DNA of 64,000 nucleotides. Source: a phage. The notes below the pieces were generated by a model. That model worked only from the letters and a program-made list of their open reading frames with translations, was not told where the DNA came from and searched no databases. The position numbers and the translations under genes are program-made. The number at the start of each line of letters is the position of its first letter. Position 1 is the first letter of the stretch. Shown here one piece after another: positions 4,755-33,636 of this stretch. The DNA is taken from sequence record PX915676.1; one strand, given 5' to 3'.

Positions 4755-5954
4755 ATGTTTCCAGTAACATTAGAAGATACTGAAGGTAATGTTTTAACGG
4801 TCAACCCCCCTTGTTATGGGTTCCTTCAACTTCGCAACTATAATGGCGGCGTTGATGAAAATGATGACGAAGATGATGACTACTTCGACCCTAACATGTA
4901 TGAGGCAACTCATGGATGGAATATGCACGTTCGAGTGTGGCATGAAGAAGCTAACGTTCGTAGTGCTGATGGGGAAGAGTTCCTGTTAAGCCGAGAGATG
5001 GATATGTGTAAAATCAAACATATCTGGAACTCTGGAACTCACATGAAGATGTTAGGTTTTAGACGTTGGCGTGATGAAAAGCATGTAGCTGAAGCTTTAA
5101 GTTGGTGTTCGTATGAAGATGAAGACACACCTCCCAAGAATAACATCGAACGTTGGAACGACAAAAACCCTGAACATCGAACCACACCTCGTGCTGTACT
5201 GGAAGCTATGGAAGCATTTGTGGACAAAGATCGTCCCTCCTGTTTACGCTGGCACGATAAAGGTTTTATGGGGGTAGCAACTGAGAATATCCCTGCTGAT
5301 CGTTGTCTGTTCTATTTGATGTTAGACCGAACCTTCTATTGTGAAGATGAAGAGAGTCAAGTTGAAACCTTCCTCCATAAATGGTTGGTTGAAGGCTGGA
5401 CAATCCTTCAGGCTTATGTTTACTCACGAATGGTTAGCACTTACACTAACCTCTTGGGTGAAACGAAAGCAACTCTGGTTGGTAACGATTGGGATGCTTG
5501 TATTTTCCCAGCGTCACTATTTACGGTTGGCATGGCTGATAAATACGCTGAAGCATTTCAAGTGCCTTGGCGTCAACAGTCATATAGAGATGGATGCGGT
5601 CACTTTCGTGATGAAGACTTTAAGTGGATTCATTATGAGAACGACGAAACAGCAGAATTGCGAGTTAACAACTCAATGTTCTTGCCAGTGATGCACCCCG
5701 ATCTAGTAAAAGATGGGTCAGAGATACTTAAAGGTGATAATCTTTTGGTTAACTTTACCCGTCGCGTGTCTAAAAATGAGAGAACAGCTAACAGGTTAAT
5801 CTACGGCATTCGTGCCGAGGCTAAAGACCTGTTCAACATCTACAACATTGTTCAGCGATTTAGTAGTGGAACTCTGGACCAAAGTTCGGAGTATTCAGTG
5901 ATTCCGTCCTCTGAGTGGGATGGTGTTATGAGCGGATTATTTTTAGGAAAATAA
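4755..5954 (+). CDS. hypothetical protein (first gene of ligase cluster)
   Basis: 399 aa; AGAGGT SD; acidic patch DENDDEDDDYFDP; no motif recognised. Confidence 0.55.
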   Translation: MFPVTLEDTEGNVLTVNPPCYGFLQLRNYNGGVDENDDEDDDYFDPNMYEATHGWNMHVRVWHEEANVRSADGEEFLLSREMDMCKIKHIWNSGTHMKMLGFRRWRDEKHVAEALSWCSYEDEDTPPKNNIERWNDKNPEHRTTPRAVLEAMEAFVDKDRPSCLRWHDKGFMGVATENIPADRCLFYLMLDRTFYCEDEESQVETFLHKWLVEGWTILQAYVYSRMVSTYTNLLGETKATLVGNDWDACIFPASLFTVGMADKYAEAFQVPWRQQSYRDGCGHFRDEDFKWIHYENDETAELRVNNSMFLPVMHPDLVKDGSEILKGDNLLVNFTRRVSKNERTANRLIYGIRAEAKDLFNIYNIVQRFSSGTLDQSSEYSVIPSSEWDGVMSGLFLGK

Positions 5955-5964
5955 AAGGTTAGTT

Positions 5965-6936
5965 ATGTCAATCTCCACAACGATCGTACCTCTTAACCTT
6001 CAACAGGATTTAGGGGAACAGAAGTTCTTAGGTCGTGGGTGCTTCGGTATCCACAACTACATGCAAGGTCAAGTCGTATATGATGTTAATGACGAATGTG
6101 TAATGGAAGATGGGCGCCATAAACGCTTCAACCGTGACATTAACTTGCAATTGGAGATGTTGAATTACTGGACCCACTCTTTTCATGGTCATGTTCCATC
6201 TGATATTGAAAAGAACTTGATTGAAACAGCAGACATTATGAATTCTATGTCTTGCTATCGTGATGTATTTACTATCACTTCAGCGAACAGTGTTGCTGTC
6301 AATCTTCGTGAGCATCCAGCAGATCAGATCTTCACAGGACTTATGCTCTTCCGTAGTATTCTGGAAGGGCAATATCGTGGAATGGATTTCCTAGCAGAAG
6401 GAATTGAAGACAGGGAAGAGTGGCTGAAGCGTAAACGCATCGGCATCGCTCTAGTGTTAGCTGGGTTAGGTCGTGACTTCTTCGGTGGGTGGTCTCAACG
6501 AGGAAGAGCCAATGGTAGTAGCGAGAGCACCTCTATTGTTATTAACAACAATATGTCAGCAGCAGCATTCCTTCCTTTGGTTGTAGACTCTGATGAATAT
6601 ACGAAGCAAGTATGGGTTCAAAACCCCTTCGGTGTTGGCGACAATGAGAATGGTTATGTTCGTAACCACAACCAAGATGCCTTACGAAGATTTGCTCGTG
6701 CTAAAGATCAAGACCCAGACGAGTATGAAACAATGTCAGAGTGGTTAAGACTCTGGTCCAACTGTTATGGTCACAAACGTGAAGCAATAGACGACAAGTT
6801 GGGAAACATTACGGTACAAAACTTTACAGCCCGACTGATTCAAAGAACTGGAGCAGATTCCGGTCTTACTCTTGAAGAAGTTGGTAACACAATCTCATCT
6901 CTCTTTTCTGAACTAGTGGAGTATTACAATGACTAA
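5965..6936 (+). CDS. hypothetical protein (ligase cluster)
   Basis: 323 aa; AAAGG SD; no motif recognised. Confidence 0.55.
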   Translation: MSISTTIVPLNLQQDLGEQKFLGRGCFGIHNYMQGQVVYDVNDECVMEDGRHKRFNRDINLQLEMLNYWTHSFHGHVPSDIEKNLIETADIMNSMSCYRDVFTITSANSVAVNLREHPADQIFTGLMLFRSILEGQYRGMDFLAEGIEDREEWLKRKRIGIALVLAGLGRDFFGGWSQRGRANGSSESTSIVINNNMSAAAFLPLVVDSDEYTKQVWVQNPFGVGDNENGYVRNHNQDALRRFARAKDQDPDEYETMSEWLRLWSNCYGHKREAIDDKLGNITVQNFTARLIQRTGADSGLTLEEVGNTISSLFSELVEYYND

Positions 6937-7735
6937 GCGCAAATTCCTCATCGGCTCTGACCCTGAAATGTTCGTTCGTACTAGCAACGGTATCATCACC
7001 TCTGTAGCTGGTCTATTAGGATGTTCTAAGGACGATAAGATCGCTCTGGCTAAGGATGTTCGTCTTCAAGAGGACAACGTACTGGCTGAGTTTGACATTG
7101 ACCCACAGAGCGGTTTTGAAGCGTTTAACGATAACATGCAACGTGGTATTGATCTTACTAACAATGTCCTGAACAAACTGGATATGGAAACAGCTCCGGG
7201 TGTCAGCTCTCACATCTTCACCGAAGAAGAGATGAAAACCTTTAATGAATCAGCGTTCATCTTTGGATGCACTCCTGACTTCAACGCTTTCACTGGTCAG
7301 AAAAACCCATCCCCAACTTCTCAGAATAAGGGACTTCGTACTGCCGGTGGTCACGTACATCTTGGCGTAGTTGGTGCTTTGGATATCACTCTGCAAACTC
7401 AGATGATGCTGGGTGTGTTGTGTGACTACTTCCTGTCTCTCCCAGCAGTAATTATGGACAAAGATACTCGCCGTAAAGAACTCTACGGTAAAGCATCTGC
7501 AATCCGTTATAAAGACTATGGTATTGAATACCGTTCTCTGTCTAACTTCTGGATTAGTGATCGTGAAAACCGTAAGTTTGTTTACGATCAGGTTGACAAG
7601 GTTGTTCAGCAGTGTGATATGTCCACTCTGATGGCATTGCACTCTCGCCTTCCGATTGAGAAGCTTCATGAAATCATTAACGGGAACAACGTTAAAGAAG
7701 CTGACCAGCAGATCAAACTCCTTCAGGTAGCATAA
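6929..7735 (+). CDS. putative amidoligase (glutamine synthetase-like COOH-NH2 ligase), copy 1
   Basis: Motifs GSDPEMF, GGHVHLG and GIEYRSL resemble the E-x-E / HxH / E-[FY]-R signatures of that fold; assigned by eye. Confidence 0.45.
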   Translation: MTKRKFLIGSDPEMFVRTSNGIITSVAGLLGCSKDDKIALAKDVRLQEDNVLAEFDIDPQSGFEAFNDNMQRGIDLTNNVLNKLDMETAPGVSSHIFTEEEMKTFNESAFIFGCTPDFNAFTGQKNPSPTSQNKGLRTAGGHVHLGVVGALDITLQTQMMLGVLCDYFLSLPAVIMDKDTRRKELYGKASAIRYKDYGIEYRSLSNFWISDRENRKFVYDQVDKVVQQCDMSTLMALHSRLPIEKLHEIINGNNVKEADQQIKLLQVA

Positions 7736-7744
7736 GAGGTTATC

Positions 7745-8362
7745 GTGAGCTTAGTAGCTGATTTTTCTCATTACTATAATGGTACATGGATTGCTAAACG
7801 AGCAGGCAATATCAACCTTCCGTGTTTTGTGATTGGTGTTGAGCAGAGCGGTAACTTCCGCAGTGATGACTTCTCGCATGAAGCAGAACAGGCTCTGTAT
7901 TTTGTTGTAGAGCAGTGGTACAAGAACGAGCATGGGAATCTCCGAAACACTACGATGAATATTCCAGTGTTTGACCCAACCTTGATTCTTGAATCACCTG
8001 ATGTTGGTTATCTGTTCCATAACGGTAACACTGTAAGCTGGACTCATATCAATCCTGTTCGTCAGAGAGCGAAGGGTTTGATGGGTAACAAGATTCGAAA
8101 CGCTCCGGGGATTGGTCGTTCGATCTCTGGTGAAATGGTTTACAGTCTGTTCAATCCTGAATTTGATGGATTGGTTACTCGTTATATTTACATCAATCCT
8201 ACAGATGGTAAAGTGCATTATAAAGGTGCACTGGTAGGTCAGGTAGATCTGGAAGCGCCTCGTGACTCTTACGGTCAACAACCGATGCGACTTCTGGAAC
8301 ATTTTCATCACATCTCTGAAAACCTTAGCAATTATAATATTACGTTGGTGGATTCGTTATGA
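7745..8362 (+). CDS. hypothetical protein (ligase cluster)
   Basis: GTG start after AAGAGGT; 205 aa. Confidence 0.45.
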   Translation: MSLVADFSHYYNGTWIAKRAGNINLPCFVIGVEQSGNFRSDDFSHEAEQALYFVVEQWYKNEHGNLRNTTMNIPVFDPTLILESPDVGYLFHNGNTVSWTHINPVRQRAKGLMGNKIRNAPGIGRSISGEMVYSLFNPEFDGLVTRYIYINPTDGKVHYKGALVGQVDLEAPRDSYGQQPMRLLEHFHHISENLSNYNITLVDSL

Positions 8363-18020: not shown

Positions 18021-18554
18021 ATGAGTTTACTAGGAAGTATTGAACTGCATGATGTAATTGACAATGGCTATCTGGATGCGGAGCATAAGTATGTTAACGC
18101 TGCTAGTGTGGATATCCGTATTGGTGATACTATCCTTGTTGAAGAACAGGCTGATGGCATCGTTGATATTGATGCGAAAGAGAATCTTCAGTGGAAGGAA
18201 GTAAAGATTCCTGAAGAGGGTTTGGTTATCACTCCGGGTCAGTTCTTCTTGGCTCACTCTATGGAGGAGTTTAACCTTCCAGATAACATCTCAAGTCTGT
18301 TTGTTCTGCGTTCGTCTATGGCTCGTTGTGGTTTGAACCACCTTCACGCCGGTTGGGCAGATGCAGGATTTAATAGCAGTAAGCTGACATTTGAATTCCA
18401 TAACGTAACCAAGCACCACAGCTTACGAGTTCGTGCTGGTATGCGTGTTGGTCAGATGGTTATGTTTGAGCACTCTCATGCAGGGGAACACTCCTATGCA
18501 GTGAAGGGTCGTTATAATAACTCTGAAGGTGTGGTTGCATCTAAAGGTGTGTAA
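18021..18554 (+). CDS. dcd: dCTP deaminase/dUTPase-superfamily protein
   Basis: ASVDIRIGD and RSSMARCGL motifs typical of dCTP deaminase; AAGGA SD. Confidence 0.6.
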   Translation: MSLLGSIELHDVIDNGYLDAEHKYVNAASVDIRIGDTILVEEQADGIVDIDAKENLQWKEVKIPEEGLVITPGQFFLAHSMEEFNLPDNISSLFVLRSSMARCGLNHLHAGWADAGFNSSKLTFEFHNVTKHHSLRVRAGMRVGQMVMFEHSHAGEHSYAVKGRYNNSEGVVASKGV

Positions 18555-18752
18555 ATGAAAAAGTGGATTGTTCGTGTACATGATAACACGACTGGAGAGT
18601 TAGTAGCTGTAGATTTTGTTAAGACTCGAGAACACGCACGTAGGGTCAAAAATCAATACAAGTCTACTTTTAGACTTAACAAGGTTACAATTGGAAAAGC
18701 TATTGTGAATAGCGAAGGTGCTTTTATTGCCAACAGTAAGGTTTATTATTAA
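18555..18752 (+). CDS. small protein, paralog family B copy 1
   Basis: 65 aa; W-x-[VI]-R, TRE-x-AR and C-terminal SKV-[YH]-Y shared with next two ORFs. Confidence 0.5.
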   Translation: MKKWIVRVHDNTTGELVAVDFVKTREHARRVKNQYKSTFRLNKVTIGKAIVNSEGAFIANSKVYY

Positions 18753-18961
18753 TGAGACCGATCACTATGAGACAATTTTGGTTAGCAAAGATTAAGTGGG
18801 TATCAGGTGGCATGACTATGACTGCACTACCCACTCGCCAACAAGCTCGAGATTTTAAAAAGACTATGCTTACTGGTGACGTGGTCAATAGTATCAGTAT
18901 CCATAAGGCCAAGGAATATTCCTCTGGTCGTGTTTATATCAGCGGAAAGGTACACTACTAA
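18752..18961 (+). CDS. small protein, paralog family B copy 2
   Basis: 69 aa; start overlaps upstream stop (TAATG). Confidence 0.5.
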   Translation: MRPITMRQFWLAKIKWVSGGMTMTALPTRQQARDFKKTMLTGDVVNSISIHKAKEYSSGRVYISGKVHY

Positions 18962-19170
18962 TGAAAAAGATGTGGGCTATTAGAATTGTTTGGGAACGTG
19001 AGCAACACCTAGGCAAAGATAATATCAAACTGTTTGAAACTCGTGAAGAGGCTCGTATTGCTAAGAAGGAGTTGAAGACTCTGATCGGAACTATTAAAAG
19101 TGTTGACATTCATCGCTGGTACGAAGACCCTAGCTCGGGTTCTTTTATGTCTAAAGTAATTTATTACTGA
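18961..19170 (+). CDS. small protein, paralog family B copy 3
   Basis: 69 aa; start overlaps upstream stop (TAATG). Confidence 0.5.
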   Translation: MKKMWAIRIVWEREQHLGKDNIKLFETREEARIAKKELKTLIGTIKSVDIHRWYEDPSSGSFMSKVIYY

Positions 19171-19242
19171 TTGGTAGTAGATATGGTAACTCTCAAATGT
19201 ATATAGAGTACAATAAGAATTTGTATTTTACAGGAGAGAGTT

Positions 19243-19572
19243 ATGTTAGATTTGAGTAAAGTGGCCCCGCCCACTGAAGAGATTACAAAATCCAAGGTGA
19301 TGCAACAGTTTTATCATCGTGATATGCTTGGTCGCTTTATCAAGAATCGTGATGTTGTTGCTTGGTCTATTGGTAATCAGGGATATCTGTTGAAGGTTCT
19401 TCAGGTTACAGGTTCAACTGCTAAGCGAGTTAAGGTGTATGACCCTGAAATGGGGCGTTCTAAGTCAGTAGACCCACAGAACTGCATCGTAATTACCCAG
19501 CAGGTAATGGATAATATTGCACGTAATGTTGCTAACTCAGTTGAACTTGATGGAGAAAACCCAAATGCATAA
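19243..19572 (+). CDS. hypothetical protein
   Basis: GGAGAGAG SD; 109 aa. Confidence 0.45.
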   Translation: MLDLSKVAPPTEEITKSKVMQQFYHRDMLGRFIKNRDVVAWSIGNQGYLLKVLQVTGSTAKRVKVYDPEMGRSKSVDPQNCIVITQQVMDNIARNVANSVELDGENPNA

Positions 19573-20128
19573 GAATGTCTTTGATTTACCTGAGATTGGT
19601 CGTGACAGTTATAGTATGTTAGACCGGTCCGACCTATCAATCTCTCGCCTTGAAACGATGCAAGGTATGATTAGTGGAAACAGCCTAGAACACATCCTGA
19701 GCTGCTTACAAGCTAACATGGAACTCTTGCATATCAAAGCTAAAAACTACCACTGGAACGTCTCTGGTGCAGGATTTCAGGGTGTTCATGGTATGTTTGA
19801 TGAGCTGGAAGATTACGCACGACAGGTAGGAGATCGTATTGCTGAACGTATGCGTTACCACTGTGTTAAAGTGGATGCTACAGCAGCTAACTACCTCTCT
19901 CATTCTTGGTTCTCAGAGGGTAATGCTGATCTAGACATGGACGGTATGCTCTCTGATATGTGCATGACCTTGATGTGTATTATTGAGAAGATGGATGAGT
20001 TTGATGGTGATTTAGCCACCTACCCTGTCGATCAGAGTATGCTTCAAGAAATTAATGAAGGTCTTGGCAAGTATTGCTACTTCGTCAAGAGCAACATGTC
20101 CCATTCAAGTGGTGACGTGTCTTACTAA
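19565..20128 (+). CDS. Dps-like ferritin-fold protein
   Basis: KNYHWNVSGAGFQGVHGMFDELEDYARQVGDRIAER matches the Dps ferroxidase-site region; ATG overlaps upstream stop (ATGCATAA). Confidence 0.65.
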   Translation: MHKNVFDLPEIGRDSYSMLDRSDLSISRLETMQGMISGNSLEHILSCLQANMELLHIKAKNYHWNVSGAGFQGVHGMFDELEDYARQVGDRIAERMRYHCVKVDATAANYLSHSWFSEGNADLDMDGMLSDMCMTLMCIIEKMDEFDGDLATYPVDQSMLQEINEGLGKYCYFVKSNMSHSSGDVSY

Positions 20129-20189
20129 AAACCTCCGCCCTGTCTCCTAACCCGAGGTGGGGCGAACTTATTTATAAGGATATAGATAT

Positions 20190-20369
20190 ATGTTATCAGC
20201 AATCGTATGGGGTATTTGGGCTATCTTTATTGGTGGTGGTATTTATTGGGCTTCTGGTAAGCTTATTGAAGAAACTCCTGATAAGAAAGGTGAGATTCAA
20301 ACAGCATCAACCATCATGGTTATCGTAGCTGTTGTTATCCCATTCCTGCTTCACCTCCTGACTGCATAA
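20190..20369 (+). CDS. small 2-TM membrane protein (holin-like topology, function unknown)
   Basis: 59-aa ORF below the ORF-track length cutoff; AAGGA SD; two hydrophobic helices. Confidence 0.35.
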   Translation: MLSAIVWGIWAIFIGGGIYWASGKLIEETPDKKGEIQTASTIMVIVAVVIPFLLHLLTA

Positions 20370-20377
20370 GGATTTAC

Positions 20378-20653
20378 ATGTCTAAAGTAATTAAGTTTTA
20401 TAGTGATCAGTGTGCTCCATGTAAAGCAATGGCTCCTACCTTTGAGAAGGTTGTTAAGGAGTTTGATGTAGAAGTGGAAGAGATTAACATCCTTGAAGGT
20501 GATGGTCGTGAACAAGCTGTTAAGTATGGTATACGAAGCATCCCTGCTTTTGTTGTGCCTGACCGTAACAGTGGTGCACACTACAGCCTCTCCGGTATGC
20601 AGACTGAAGCAAACCTGAAAGCATTTTTGGACACAGCCCTGAGAAATAAGTAA
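20378..20653 (+). CDS. thioredoxin
   Basis: FYSDQCAPCKAMAP active-site region and GIRSIPAFVV cis-Pro region; 91 aa. Confidence 0.75.
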   Translation: MSKVIKFYSDQCAPCKAMAPTFEKVVKEFDVEVEEINILEGDGREQAVKYGIRSIPAFVVPDRNSGAHYSLSGMQTEANLKAFLDTALRNK

Positions 20654-20668
20654 TAAGGATATTCACGG

Positions 20669-21325
20669 ATGAATGAACAACTACAAGCAACATTAATCGA
20701 AGCTATGGGAAGTGATCGTAGCGTAGTAAACGCAGCTCGAGTTTCCTTTGGCGTAACCCGTGAAGGTGATTTAAATGAACGTGATGAACGTCTCATCAAC
20801 TTCCTCGCACGGGAAAAACACTGTACCCCATTCCGACACCCGCAAGTCAGCTTCCGATGCAAAGCACCTATTGCAATTGCGAGACAGCTGGGCAAGCATC
20901 AGGTTGGATTCTCGTGGAACGAAATGTCCCGGCGGTATAAAGATGGAGCAGTTGAAGTCTTCATCCCTAAAGAGATTTTTGCGAGACCTTCGGACCTCCA
21001 TGCAGGTTCAGGGATTCAACTCATCGACGGAGAGCGAGCTGAAGCATTAATGCTGATTAACGATGCATATGAAGCTTCTCTAGCAGCATATGACAAGTTG
21101 ATTGAATTTATTGCACCAGAGCAAGCTCGATTTGTTCTTCCTCAGGGGATGATCACTGAGTGGGTGTGGACCGGTTCTTTGTATGGCTGGTTTGAGTTGT
21201 GTCGTCAGCGACTCTCCTCTCACGCTCAATATGAAGTTCGAGTGTTTGCTAAATCTGTAGACGAAGAGATGGCTAAGATCTACCCAATCTCGTGGGCAGC
21301 CCTGAAGAAAACTTTGGAGAGTTAA
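20669..21325 (+). CDS. ThyX-like (flavin-dependent thymidylate synthase family) protein, divergent
   Basis: HCTPFRHPQVSFRC...LGKHQVGFSWNEMSRRY aligns to the ThyX core but has KHQ where the RHR of the RHR-x7-8-S motif is expected. Confidence 0.45.
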   Translation: MNEQLQATLIEAMGSDRSVVNAARVSFGVTREGDLNERDERLINFLAREKHCTPFRHPQVSFRCKAPIAIARQLGKHQVGFSWNEMSRRYKDGAVEVFIPKEIFARPSDLHAGSGIQLIDGERAEALMLINDAYEASLAAYDKLIEFIAPEQARFVLPQGMITEWVWTGSLYGWFELCRQRLSSHAQYEVRVFAKSVDEEMAKIYPISWAALKKTLES

Positions 21326-21708: not shown

Positions 21709-21874
21709 CTTCTGTAAGAAAGAGAAACCTATCGCCAACTTCAAACCTAACCCTGTAACTGGTCTGACCCATGTCATGTGCCACTCTTGCAGGATATATC
21801 TTGAAACAAAGCACACTATCAATAGGTTGCACTATTATCACCCAACAACATTCAAATTTAAGGTTGTGAAATGA
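21688..21874 (+). CDS. small zinc-ribbon protein
   Basis: MEKKVCSFCKK...MCHSC, two CxxC pairs; start inside upstream ORF end. Confidence 0.35.
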
Positions 21875-22194
21875 TTGACAGTAATACATTTAGGACTTCA
21901 AATGGAAGTGAAATAAGTCCCGCTGAAGTAATCAATCGGCATAGAAGGCAATTGATCATCCATTCCTACTTGTATTACTGGTTGGATGACCCTATCTGGT
22001 CTGATGATAAATGGCAACAAGTTGCTAATGATCTAGCGGAGCTGCAAGCTCTGTATCCAGAACCTACTGGAGTCTTTGACAACGAGTTTAAAGATTGGGA
22101 TGGTTCTACAGGTATGCATCTCCCACATAACGAAGCTGTTGCTTGTATGGCGACAGCTGTTTACAGACTTCATAAAGAGGTTAACGTCGCATGA
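21871..22194 (+). CDS. hypothetical protein
   Basis: 107 aa ORF, start overlaps upstream stop. Confidence 0.45.
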   Translation: MIDSNTFRTSNGSEISPAEVINRHRRQLIIHSYLYYWLDDPIWSDDKWQQVANDLAELQALYPEPTGVFDNEFKDWDGSTGMHLPHNEAVACMATAVYRLHKEVNVA

Positions 22195-31452: not shown

Positions 31453-32742
<1,290 letters not shown>

Positions 32743-32746
<4 letters not shown>

Positions 32747-33636
32747 GTGAAGAGGTAAAAGCTTTAAAGAAAGCTCTTGCAATTAAAATCAAACATTTAA
32801 ATTTCGTCAGAGATGAGTTGGAGGAGCTATCCAACTTATCAGGGTATGAATTACAGAATGAACTTGTAGAGTTTCAAATCAATGTTGATGGCGGTAGATA
32901 CGTAGAAACAACTAGAGCGATTTTACCTAAAGTTACTGGTAACAAAACTTCTCCAGTAGATTACTCACATGACCACACGGAGCAATTAGAAATGGAATCT
33001 CAAGGCAATCCAGCACTGACCAATATGGTGGGAGATTCCCACTATAAGCCTTTAGTAGTAATTCTTAATGGGCCTCCGGGTTGTGGTAAAGATACGATAG
33101 CCAATGCTTGGGTCAATGCCCATTCATACCACCACGGATATTCAACCAAATCCTTCAAGGAGCCAATGTACAGAGTAGCTGCTGCTGCACTAGGAATACC
33201 TCTAGAAAATTTTCTAGCACGCTATGAAGATCGTGAATGGAAAGAAAAACCTAGACCAGAATGGGGAGGGAAGTCTGTAAGAGATTTGATGATTTCTACA
33301 AGTGAAGACTTCTTAAAACCTATGTTTGGCAACAATCATATGGGGAATCTTGCTGTAAAAAGTATCAAACAAGAAGGGCTAGGTCAGGATGATATTGTCG
33401 TGTTTACTGACGGAGGTTTTGATGCAGAGGTACGAGAACTAGAAAAGAATTTCCATGTCCAAGTTGTCCAAGTTCTTAGAGATGGTTGCTCTTTTGATGG
33501 AGACTCTCGTTCATATATTGAAGGCGAACAGAGAAAAACATATCTACTGTTTAATGACTCAACCATCGAATCAGCAGTCTCAGATCTAGATTGGATTATT
33601 GCTCAAGCTCAGGATGATATTTATGGAAGAAGTTAA
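32743..33636 (+). CDS. P-loop kinase, dNMP-kinase-like
   Basis: Walker A LNGPPGCGKDT resembling the GxxxxGKDT of phage deoxynucleotide kinases; N-terminal coiled-coil. Confidence 0.5.

Follow-up and report, generated by a model that had tools for sequence, protein, structure and literature searches.

KHQ-type ThyX and a predicted dUMP-forming dCTP deaminase, a probable thymidylate-supply module of a phiEco32-like coliphage

The DNA analysed here is a 64,000-nt stretch of the phage record PX915676.1, read on one strand from 5' to 3' (hereafter the window), in which two genes between positions 18021 and 21325 encode a putative deoxycytidine triphosphate (dCTP) deaminase and a putative flavin-dependent thymidylate synthase (ThyX). 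Nucleotide comparison matched region 18021-21325 to 99 phage records; with Escherichia phages KM01, EK5, SGF2 and SkaterBoy_Bas90 (Bas90) its identity is 97-98% from end to end. The matching phages are phiEco32-like podoviruses (~77 kb), and the source is a virulent coliphage of this type, belonging to Kuravirus in the Gordonclarkvirinae. The G+C content of the window is 42.6%, and that of Escherichia coli is ~51%. Both genes are already known by name, since near-identical phages are annotated with 'dCTP deaminase' and 'thymidylate synthase (ThyX)'. The following genes, the third being a possible deoxynucleoside monophosphate (dNMP) kinase further downstream, are at the centre of the analysis:

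18021..18554, plus strand: dCTP deaminase (dcd), 177 amino acids (aa); Pfam DCD 3.6e-34, TIGR02274
20669..21325, plus strand: ThyX of the KHQ-x8-S-R-R-Y type, 218 aa; Pfam Thy1 1.2e-43, TIGR02170
32743..33636, plus strand: P-loop protein similar to dNMP kinases; PHROG 139 3.7e-56

The same three genes had been pointed out in a preliminary description of this DNA, which proposed a dCTP deaminase-like gene, a ThyX-like open reading frame (ORF) carrying KHQ where the RHR triplet is expected, and a dNMP-kinase-like P-loop protein; the first two are confirmed here, the third is a candidate kinase, and KHQ-x8-S fits the x7-8 spacing of the signature. The ThyX protein (EC 2.1.1.148) matches Pfam Thy1 (PF02511) over its full length (149.5 bits against a cut-off of 24.8; profile positions 1-190 of 191) and the TIGR02170 equivalog model with 128.1 bits against a cut-off of 87.9. 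Its AlphaFold2 model, built as a monomer on 70 homologues (the ThyX active site is formed by three subunits), reached a predicted local distance difference test score (pLDDT) of 96.2 and a predicted template modelling score (pTM) of 0.90. Foldseek placed the model on the Thermotoga maritima ThyX structures with template modelling (TM) scores of 0.80-0.82 and a probability of 1.00, indicating the ThyX fold.

In the HMMER alignment to T. maritima TM0449, ARQLGKHQVGFSWNEMSRRY (residues 71-90) stands against 'ARQWFRHRIA-SYNELSGRY', so that the signature K76-H77-Q78-x8-S87-R88-R89-Y90 corresponds to R78-H79-R80-x7-S88-G89-R90-Y91. The alignment around the signature was unambiguous against both TM0449 and Thermus thermophilus ThyX. 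The literal R-H-R-x7-8-S pattern is absent, both arginines being replaced, with the His, the Ser and the spacing kept. Position by position, the differences from T. maritima are as follows:

T. maritima R78: replaced by K76
T. maritima H79: kept as H77
T. maritima R80: replaced by Q78
Loop from the triplet to Ser: one residue longer in the phage ThyX
T. maritima S88: kept as S87
T. maritima G89: replaced by R88
T. maritima R90 and Y91: kept as R89 and Y90

The altered triplet is typical of a large branch of the family. Among the closest 120 homologues (90% to 53% identity), 119 carried KHQ and one carried KSQ, which argues that the triplet is neither a chance change nor an alignment artefact. 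A HMMER scan of 1.84 billion cluster representatives (50%-identity clusters) returned 353 clusters at E <= 1e-30, and the triplet was counted in the best 150 of these, in 128 of which the motif pattern could place it: KHQ 68, KHK 15, RHQ 5, KHT 5, RHT 5 and RHR 1, along with many others. The branch consensus is [KR]-[HS]-x-(V/I)-G-x3-(N/S)-E-x-S-R-R-Y, in which the third position of the triplet is free. Phages with this type are taxonomically scattered and include Salmonella 7-11, Yersinia PYps4T, Erwinia Faunus, Staphylococcus Pel53, Vibrio Thalassa, Pectobacterium phiTE, Roseophage SIO1, Rheinheimera phages and a T4-like cyanophage contig. Selected phage proteins aligned by hand form a spectrum: Thermus YS40, Pseudomonas Quinobequin and Mycobacterium I3 retain RHR...SGRY, and Bacillus Gemini (KYV), Streptomyces SaltySpitoon (KYA), Klebsiella P19-618 (KHK) and SIO1 (KHK) carry ...SRRY. 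Ten distant cluster representatives were looked up, among which the one that was named, from Petrotogaceae, bears RHR. Three metagenomic relatives (P0122, P0136 and P0193) are long (352-642 aa) and have the signature loop interrupted by an insert ending in '...VVHN' just before (S/C)-x-x-E-x-S-x-R-Y, which is read from its sequence as a putative intein inside the motif.

The branch is also present in cells. A pattern from a 15-sequence alignment, applied to one genome per prokaryotic species, gave 50 loci, and the motif was checked in 29 of them: 21 carried KHQ and the others KHK, KHE or KHA. On the complete 1.79-Mb chromosome of a member of Spirochaetia (OZ251568.1), thyX is flanked by dihydroorotate dehydrogenase (pyrD), an orotidine monophosphate (OMP)-decarboxylase/phosphoribosyltransferase fusion (pyrF/pyrE), citrate synthase and an aldo-keto reductase; the simplest inference is that this ThyX, lying amid the pyrimidine genes of so small a chromosome, is the thymidylate synthase of the cell. 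A KHQ-type thyX follows pyruvate-dehydrogenase-type E1-beta and E2 genes in Chloroflexota and adjoins LytB/IspH in Nitrospinota, and in a Poribacteria genome the neighbours of a KHQ-branch thyX are an enolase-superfamily gene on one side and an aminotransferase on the other. Several of the cellular loci are on long contigs with plainly non-phage surroundings. Two loci were rejected as cellular: a 'Prochlorococcus' locus (L036) adjoins what we take to be a T4 gp32-like single-strand-binding protein and comes from a cyanophage contig, and the ORFs of another (L041) look like phage DNA. As most of this large branch, chromosomal genes included, is non-RHR, the literal RHR motif describes only part of the ThyX family. 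The earlier suggestion of an altered substrate or chemistry, drawn from KHQ, is therefore not supported, since the triplet is typical of a large branch to which chromosomal genes in housekeeping neighbourhoods also belong.

The contact roles used here mainly follow two structural papers, according to which the RHR triplet in solved structures hydrogen-bonds to the adenosine monophosphate (AMP) phosphate of flavin adenine dinucleotide (FAD), to its ribityl chain and to the flavin mononucleotide (FMN) phosphate, its first Arg also contacts the isoalloxazine ring and deoxyuridine monophosphate (dUMP) (PMC6514825), and Arg78 and Arg80 are both listed among the dUMP contacts (PMC3498832). The name 'dUMP-binding' given to the triplet in the preliminary description thus holds for its two arginines, but the triplet as a whole mainly bonds the FAD phosphates and ribityl. 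Among the residues aligned with nucleotide and flavin contacts, the phage protein keeps H51 (T. maritima H53), R72 (R74), Q73 (Q75), H77 (H79), E85 (E86), S87 (S88), R89 (R90), Y90 (Y91), R154 (R147) and R181 (R174). These include His53 and the dUMP contacts outside the triplet (T. maritima Q75, E86, S88, R90, Y91, R147 and R174). In 70 diverse members of the branch, Q73, E85, S87, R89, Y90, R154 and R181 never vary. R89 and R181, the two arginines that face the uracil ring, are retained; a cytosine substrate would be expected to need a change at these positions, and none is present. T. maritima R165, N163 and N169 had been considered as further lost flavin contacts, and this was rejected because the canonical T. 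thermophilus ThyX differs there too.

The lost arginine may have been moved rather than given up. R88 is found in 96% of the branch members, and a few relatives have 'ERSMRY' for 'EMSRRY', which keeps an Arg on one or the other side of the Ser. In the ThyX of PBCV-1 (Paramecium bursaria chlorella virus 1), Gln-89, at the position equivalent to R88, can occupy the dUMP phosphate pocket (PMC3498832). The loss of R80 is paired with the gain of an Arg after the conserved Ser (SRRY versus SGRY), suggesting that the phosphate-binding Arg has been relocated; R88 would then take over phosphate binding.

The deaminase reaches 107.6 bits with TIGR02274 (cut-off 92.8). Its best-scoring relatives in the PDB are 4xjc, which we take to be the bifunctional enzyme of Bacillus halodurans, and 2qxx of Mycobacterium tuberculosis, at a modest similarity (58.8 bits for the top match). 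Aligned to the E. coli enzyme, E125 corresponds to the catalytic E138, S98 to S111, R102 to R115 and D114 to D128, so that the profile score, the catalytic Glu and the Ser and Arg of the nucleotide site all mark it as a dCTP deaminase. The M. tuberculosis enzyme is a bifunctional dCTP deaminase/deoxyuridine triphosphatase (dUTPase); in the monofunctional type a conserved Arg (E. coli R126) fills the site of the hydrolytic water and is linked by a salt bridge to the catalytic Asp, and the bifunctional type has Phe or Trp at that position and requires Ser102, Asp119 and Gln148 in M. tuberculosis numbering (PMC3360063). The phage deaminase has W112 at the R126 position, and its S98, D114 and Q146 correspond to M. 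tuberculosis S102, D119 and Q148, where E. coli has Ala at the Gln position. These four residues agree with the sequence rule for the bifunctional type (EC 3.5.4.30), and the enzyme is predicted to be bifunctional and to form dUMP. Direct formation of dUMP, the substrate of ThyX, would mean that the deaminase route leaves the deoxyuridine triphosphate (dUTP) pool unenlarged.

Combined with the above analysis, the two genes probably form a module from dCTP through dUMP to deoxythymidine monophosphate (dTMP), which would raise deoxythymidine triphosphate (dTTP) for the 42.6% G+C genome with no need for dihydrofolate reductase (DHFR). The bifunctional deaminase would convert dCTP to dUMP, ammonia and pyrophosphate without releasing dUTP. 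ThyX, a homotetrameric flavoenzyme, would then convert dUMP to dTMP, with the carbon coming from methylene-tetrahydrofolate and the reducing power from NADPH via the flavin. It takes only carbon from methylene-tetrahydrofolate and regenerates tetrahydrofolate (PMC9931769); since tetrahydrofolate rather than dihydrofolate is released, DHFR would be dispensable, and neither ThyA nor DHFR is annotated in a 43-kb stretch of Bas90. Phosphorylation of dTMP could be the work of the phage's kinase-like P-loop protein or of host Tmk, after which host Ndk would complete the route to dTTP. The net effect would be to shift pyrimidine deoxynucleotides from C to T, which fits a genome of this composition in a ~51% G+C host. 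Of the two outcomes left open in the preliminary description, a boost of dTTP supply or a modified pyrimidine, the former is thus supported; the latter has lost its KHQ premise and is very unlikely.

Both genes lie in a one-strand block for replication and nucleotide metabolism. It starts with a primase/helicase, an exonuclease subunit and a nucleotidyltransferase, continues with dcd, three small ORFs, a hypothetical protein, a Dps-like protein, a small hypothetical ORF, a thioredoxin and thyX, and ends with PhoH, a DNA polymerase, a sigma factor, a SLOG-like protein, the dNMP-kinase-like protein and an exonuclease. The other features recorded between dcd and thyX are:

18555..19170, plus strand: three tandem small genes of 65, 69 and 69 aa, function unassigned; PHROG 4939 (unknown function)
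19517..20128, plus strand: Dps/ferritin-like protein, 'DNA binding protein' in relatives; Pfam Ferritin 2.9e-07, PHROG 3636 3.3e-55
20378..20653, plus strand: thioredoxin-fold protein with a CxxC motif ('CAPC'); Pfam Thioredoxin 2.7e-13

The three small genes are distant paralogues (pairwise BLASTP E values of 2e-06 and 0.011) which follow one another directly in the interval from dcd to the next gene and all have ...V(Y/H/I)Y(Y) at their ends, and no place in the pathway is assigned to them. The Dps-like protein matches the NCBIfam Dps models below their cut-offs. Eight nt past its stop codon lies a stem-loop (20136-20164) of 11 pairs, including 7 G-C pairs, with a T-rich tail after it, which may be a terminator or attenuator between the dcd group and the thioredoxin-thyX pair; the scan for promoters and terminators performed overall no better than on shuffled sequences. 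The thioredoxin-fold gene is 15 bp upstream of thyX.

For the 32743-33636 protein the family-level match is PHROG 139 'deoxynucleoside monophosphate kinase'. In Pfam and in the PDB sequence search only its P-loop is recognised, no Pfam or NCBIfam family exceeds its cut-off, and the PDB sequence search was otherwise uninformative; the protein could possibly carry out the step from dTMP to deoxythymidine diphosphate (dTDP). The stop codon of the SLOG-family (YAcAr/YspA-like) gene before it (32354-32746; Pfam 27.9 bits against a cut-off of 28.2, with a match to PHROG 289) overlaps its start, which suggests a functional pair acting on nucleotides. Directly upstream of dcd, 16641-18011 encodes the 456-aa nucleotidyltransferase (PHROG 12715 2.4e-245), which gave a weak match to the PolyA_pol head domain (0.0023) and no solved relative in the PDB sequence search, and which the BASEL authors named as a candidate for DNA modification (PMC11990801). 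A phiEco32-typical block spans 4755-14135, including a phiEco32-type COOH-NH2 ligase (PF14395) at 6929-7735. The Bas90 annotation of this block lists an amidoligase, a GlmS-like glutamine amidotransferase, a RimK-like ATP-grasp protein and a gamma-glutamyl cyclotransferase, and Pfam gave no match for the large ORFs at 4755-5954 and 5965-6936; the block could make a peptide-like metabolite or serve a modification. The stand-alone 107-aa protein at 21871-22194 has a single domain, the NAD+-binding Ia domain from the N-terminus of NAD-dependent DNA ligase (PF22745 3.7e-35), and is labelled 'DNA ligase' in relatives, although it has no catalytic domains. The 'phosphatase' annotated near the sigma factor in Bas90 has no counterpart at the matching place in the window, where the ORFs are spanin-like.

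The composition of the window bears on the chemistry of its DNA. GATC occurs 141 times against ~300 expected (z = -12.4), CCWGG occurs 3 times against ~83-88 expected, and nine 6-bp palindromes are absent (CTGCAG, GAGCTC, CCCGGG, AGGCCT, CACGTG, CCATGG, CGTACG, TGGCCA and GGGCCC), including the PstI, SacI, SmaI and NcoI sites. AT-rich palindromes such as GATATC, AATATT and GTTAAC are enriched. Avoidance as strong as that of the former sites is expected where phage DNA is open to cutting by type II enzymes, and part of the restriction-modification resistance described for these phages may come from it.

Several points weigh against an ordinary supply of dTMP. Mutagenesis of M. tuberculosis ThyX reportedly made both arginines part of an essential extended motif. 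The literature yielded no assayed member of the KHQ branch, so that dTMP as the product is inferred. GATATC (EcoRV) sites are enriched and not avoided (39 observed against 16 expected). The Kuravirus clade leaves the wider branch in one loop, the one feature that is truly particular to the group: where the branch consensus is 'WR.R....KQGS', the phage protein has IFARPSDLHAGS, including F104, H111 and A112. The 'R.R....KQ(G/A)S' loop is present in the wider branch and in T. thermophilus ThyX, and the enterobacterial-phage clade has 'F.RP..LH.GS', in which R106 is invariant. As T. maritima ThyX, the best-studied and an active enzyme, is also without the R...KQ loop, its absence is not disqualifying. 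Finally, the Gordonclarkvirinae have been described as withstanding restriction-modification systems unusually well, with no protective mechanism known, and covalent modification has been speculated (PMC11990801); a search of papers from 2024 on that mention the group gave none that resolves this resistance.

Three other readings were weighed against the supply of ordinary thymidine. The protein could carry out the usual reaction from dUMP to dTMP with altered flavin handling, using FMN, binding FAD more weakly or taking another reductant, for which the upstream thioredoxin-like protein would be a candidate. Both arginines of a triplet that hydrogen-bonds the FAD phosphates and ribityl in solved structures (PMC6514825) are replaced here, and the thioredoxin gene is immediately upstream of thyX; yet H77 and H51 are kept, a Lys can still bind phosphate, and the thioredoxin adjacency is absent from the cellular loci inspected, which leaves this reading unlikely. 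It is very unlikely that the ThyX-like enzyme instead releases a C5-substituted dUMP other than dTMP, e.g. 5-hydroxymethyl-dUMP, from a hydrated exocyclic-methylene intermediate. Such a product would be incorporated after phosphorylation by the kinase-like P-loop protein to give a protective modified thymidine, whose decoration would perhaps be completed by the upstream cluster of amidoligase, amidotransferase and ATP-grasp proteins. In its favour, acid quenching of the ThyX reaction has reportedly trapped 5-hydroxymethyl-dUMP, and the genome has both the kinase-like P-loop protein and the unexplained amidoligase cluster. The change of both motif arginines, the loss of R...KQ in the Kuravirus clade and the enriched EcoRV sites point the same way, as does the unexplained resistance, for which covalent modification is the suspicion of the authors who described it (PMC11990801). 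On the other hand, KHQ is common to chromosomal housekeeping ThyX and so cannot itself be the signal, and the fully active T. maritima ThyX likewise has no R...KQ motif. Thymidine hypermodification through 5-hydroxymethyldeoxyuridine (5-hmdU) in phages ViI, M6, SP10 and PhiW-14 is said to use a ThyA-type dUMP hydroxymethylase, a DNA 5-hmdU kinase and aGPT-Pplase transferases; no known thymidine-hypermodification genes (e.g. the ThyA-type hydroxymethylase) are annotated in the 43-kb stretch of Bas90, in which no dedicated search was made. Moreover, T-containing palindromes (PstI, SacI, NsiI and KpnI sites and GATC) are strongly avoided, which suggests that these sites can be cut, and the termini of phiEco32 were mapped in part by restriction profiling (PMC9965538). 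If true, this would be the first case of a ThyX-fold enzyme serving to modify DNA bases and would explain the resistance of the Gordonclarkvirinae.

The third reading, that deoxyuridine replaces thymidine as in PBS1, with the deaminase raising dUTP and the ThyX-like protein inactive or otherwise used, is extremely unlikely. It is the 'most simple' suggestion of the BASEL authors, made from the restriction-modification resistance, the dCTP deaminase and the nucleotidyltransferase (PMC11990801), and no separate dUTPase is annotated in the Bas90 stretch. The deaminase, though, bears the sequence marks of the dUMP-forming type, which removes dUTP, and ThyX is intact throughout the group, with its uracil- and flavin-facing residues conserved outside the two arginines; a dUMP-forming deaminase together with a conserved, intact ThyX argues against deoxyuridine DNA. 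We know of no uracil-DNA phage that has a thymidylate synthase. Uracil-DNA phages encode uracil-DNA glycosylase inhibitors and amplify awkwardly with archaeal-type polymerases, and the 99 related records were sequenced routinely.

As KHQ is normal in a large branch that includes bacterial housekeeping genes, ordinary thymidine supply is most likely, and not an exotic DNA chemistry. As it stands, the locus is routine, and its gene names are already in the databases. What is added here is the failure of RHR in a branch that probably also serves cells, the hypothesis of a relocated arginine and the predicted direct formation of dUMP by the deaminase. The textbook signature RHR-x7-8-S fails for a large and widespread branch of ThyX, and motif-based filters risk discarding or flagging it; a published ThyX phylogeny filtered sequences by their deviation from the RHR motif (PMC2826268). 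The predicted dUMP-forming deaminase and the intact ThyX would also speak against the published suggestion of deoxyuridine DNA (PMC11990801).

Among known systems, T. maritima ThyX (TM0449, PDB 1O26) has the same fold and length class, with ~32-33% identity between the phage protein and the T. maritima chains. H53, R74, Q75, H79, E86, S88, R90, Y91, R147 and R174 (T. maritima numbering) are matched in both this enzyme and T. thermophilus ThyX (PDB 6J61). Unlike T. maritima ThyX, the phage protein has Lys for R78, Gln for R80, Arg for G89 and one extra residue before the Ser. The best matches in the PDB sequence search are all RHR proteins, and the KHQ branch has no solved structure. The KHQ-type ThyX proteins of other phages and of bacterial chromosomes (Spirochaetia, Chloroflexota and Nitrospinota) share its motif architecture, [KR]-H-x-(V/I)-G-x3-(N/S)-E-x-S-R-R-Y, and its invariant residues; unlike this wider branch, the enterobacterial-phage clade, including the window, has 'F.RP..LH.GS' for 'R.R....KQGS'. 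The phage deaminase shares with M. tuberculosis Rv0321 (2QXX) and with the DCD-DUT of Methanocaldococcus jannaschii the aromatic residue at E. coli R126, the Ser, Asp and Gln and the catalytic Glu; its similarity to the solved enzymes is modest.

A change of substrate within the fold has a possible precedent. PDB 4P5A, named 'Thymidylate synthase ThyX' by its depositors, matches the phage ThyX at 3e-16, and we take it to be PolB, the UMP/dUMP C5-methylase of polyoxin biosynthesis. The known change in PolB concerns how the sugar 2'-OH is recognised, by way of extra loops and tyrosines, and not the RHR triplet. If PolB does have that function, the ThyX fold can change its substrate.

The closest parallel in logic is PBCV-1. 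Its deaminase (A596R) differs in belonging to the deoxycytidine monophosphate (dCMP)-deaminase family, and its ThyX (A674R), a standard ThyX according to the literature, is a distant relative of the phage protein (E = 1e-07). In that virus (40% G+C; host 66% G+C), the dCTP/dCMP deaminase and ThyX shift the dCTP:dTTP ratio (PMC10142491). The logic shared with the coliphage would be that of a low-G+C virus in a host of higher G+C, with a deaminase-ThyX pair raising dTTP relative to dCTP.

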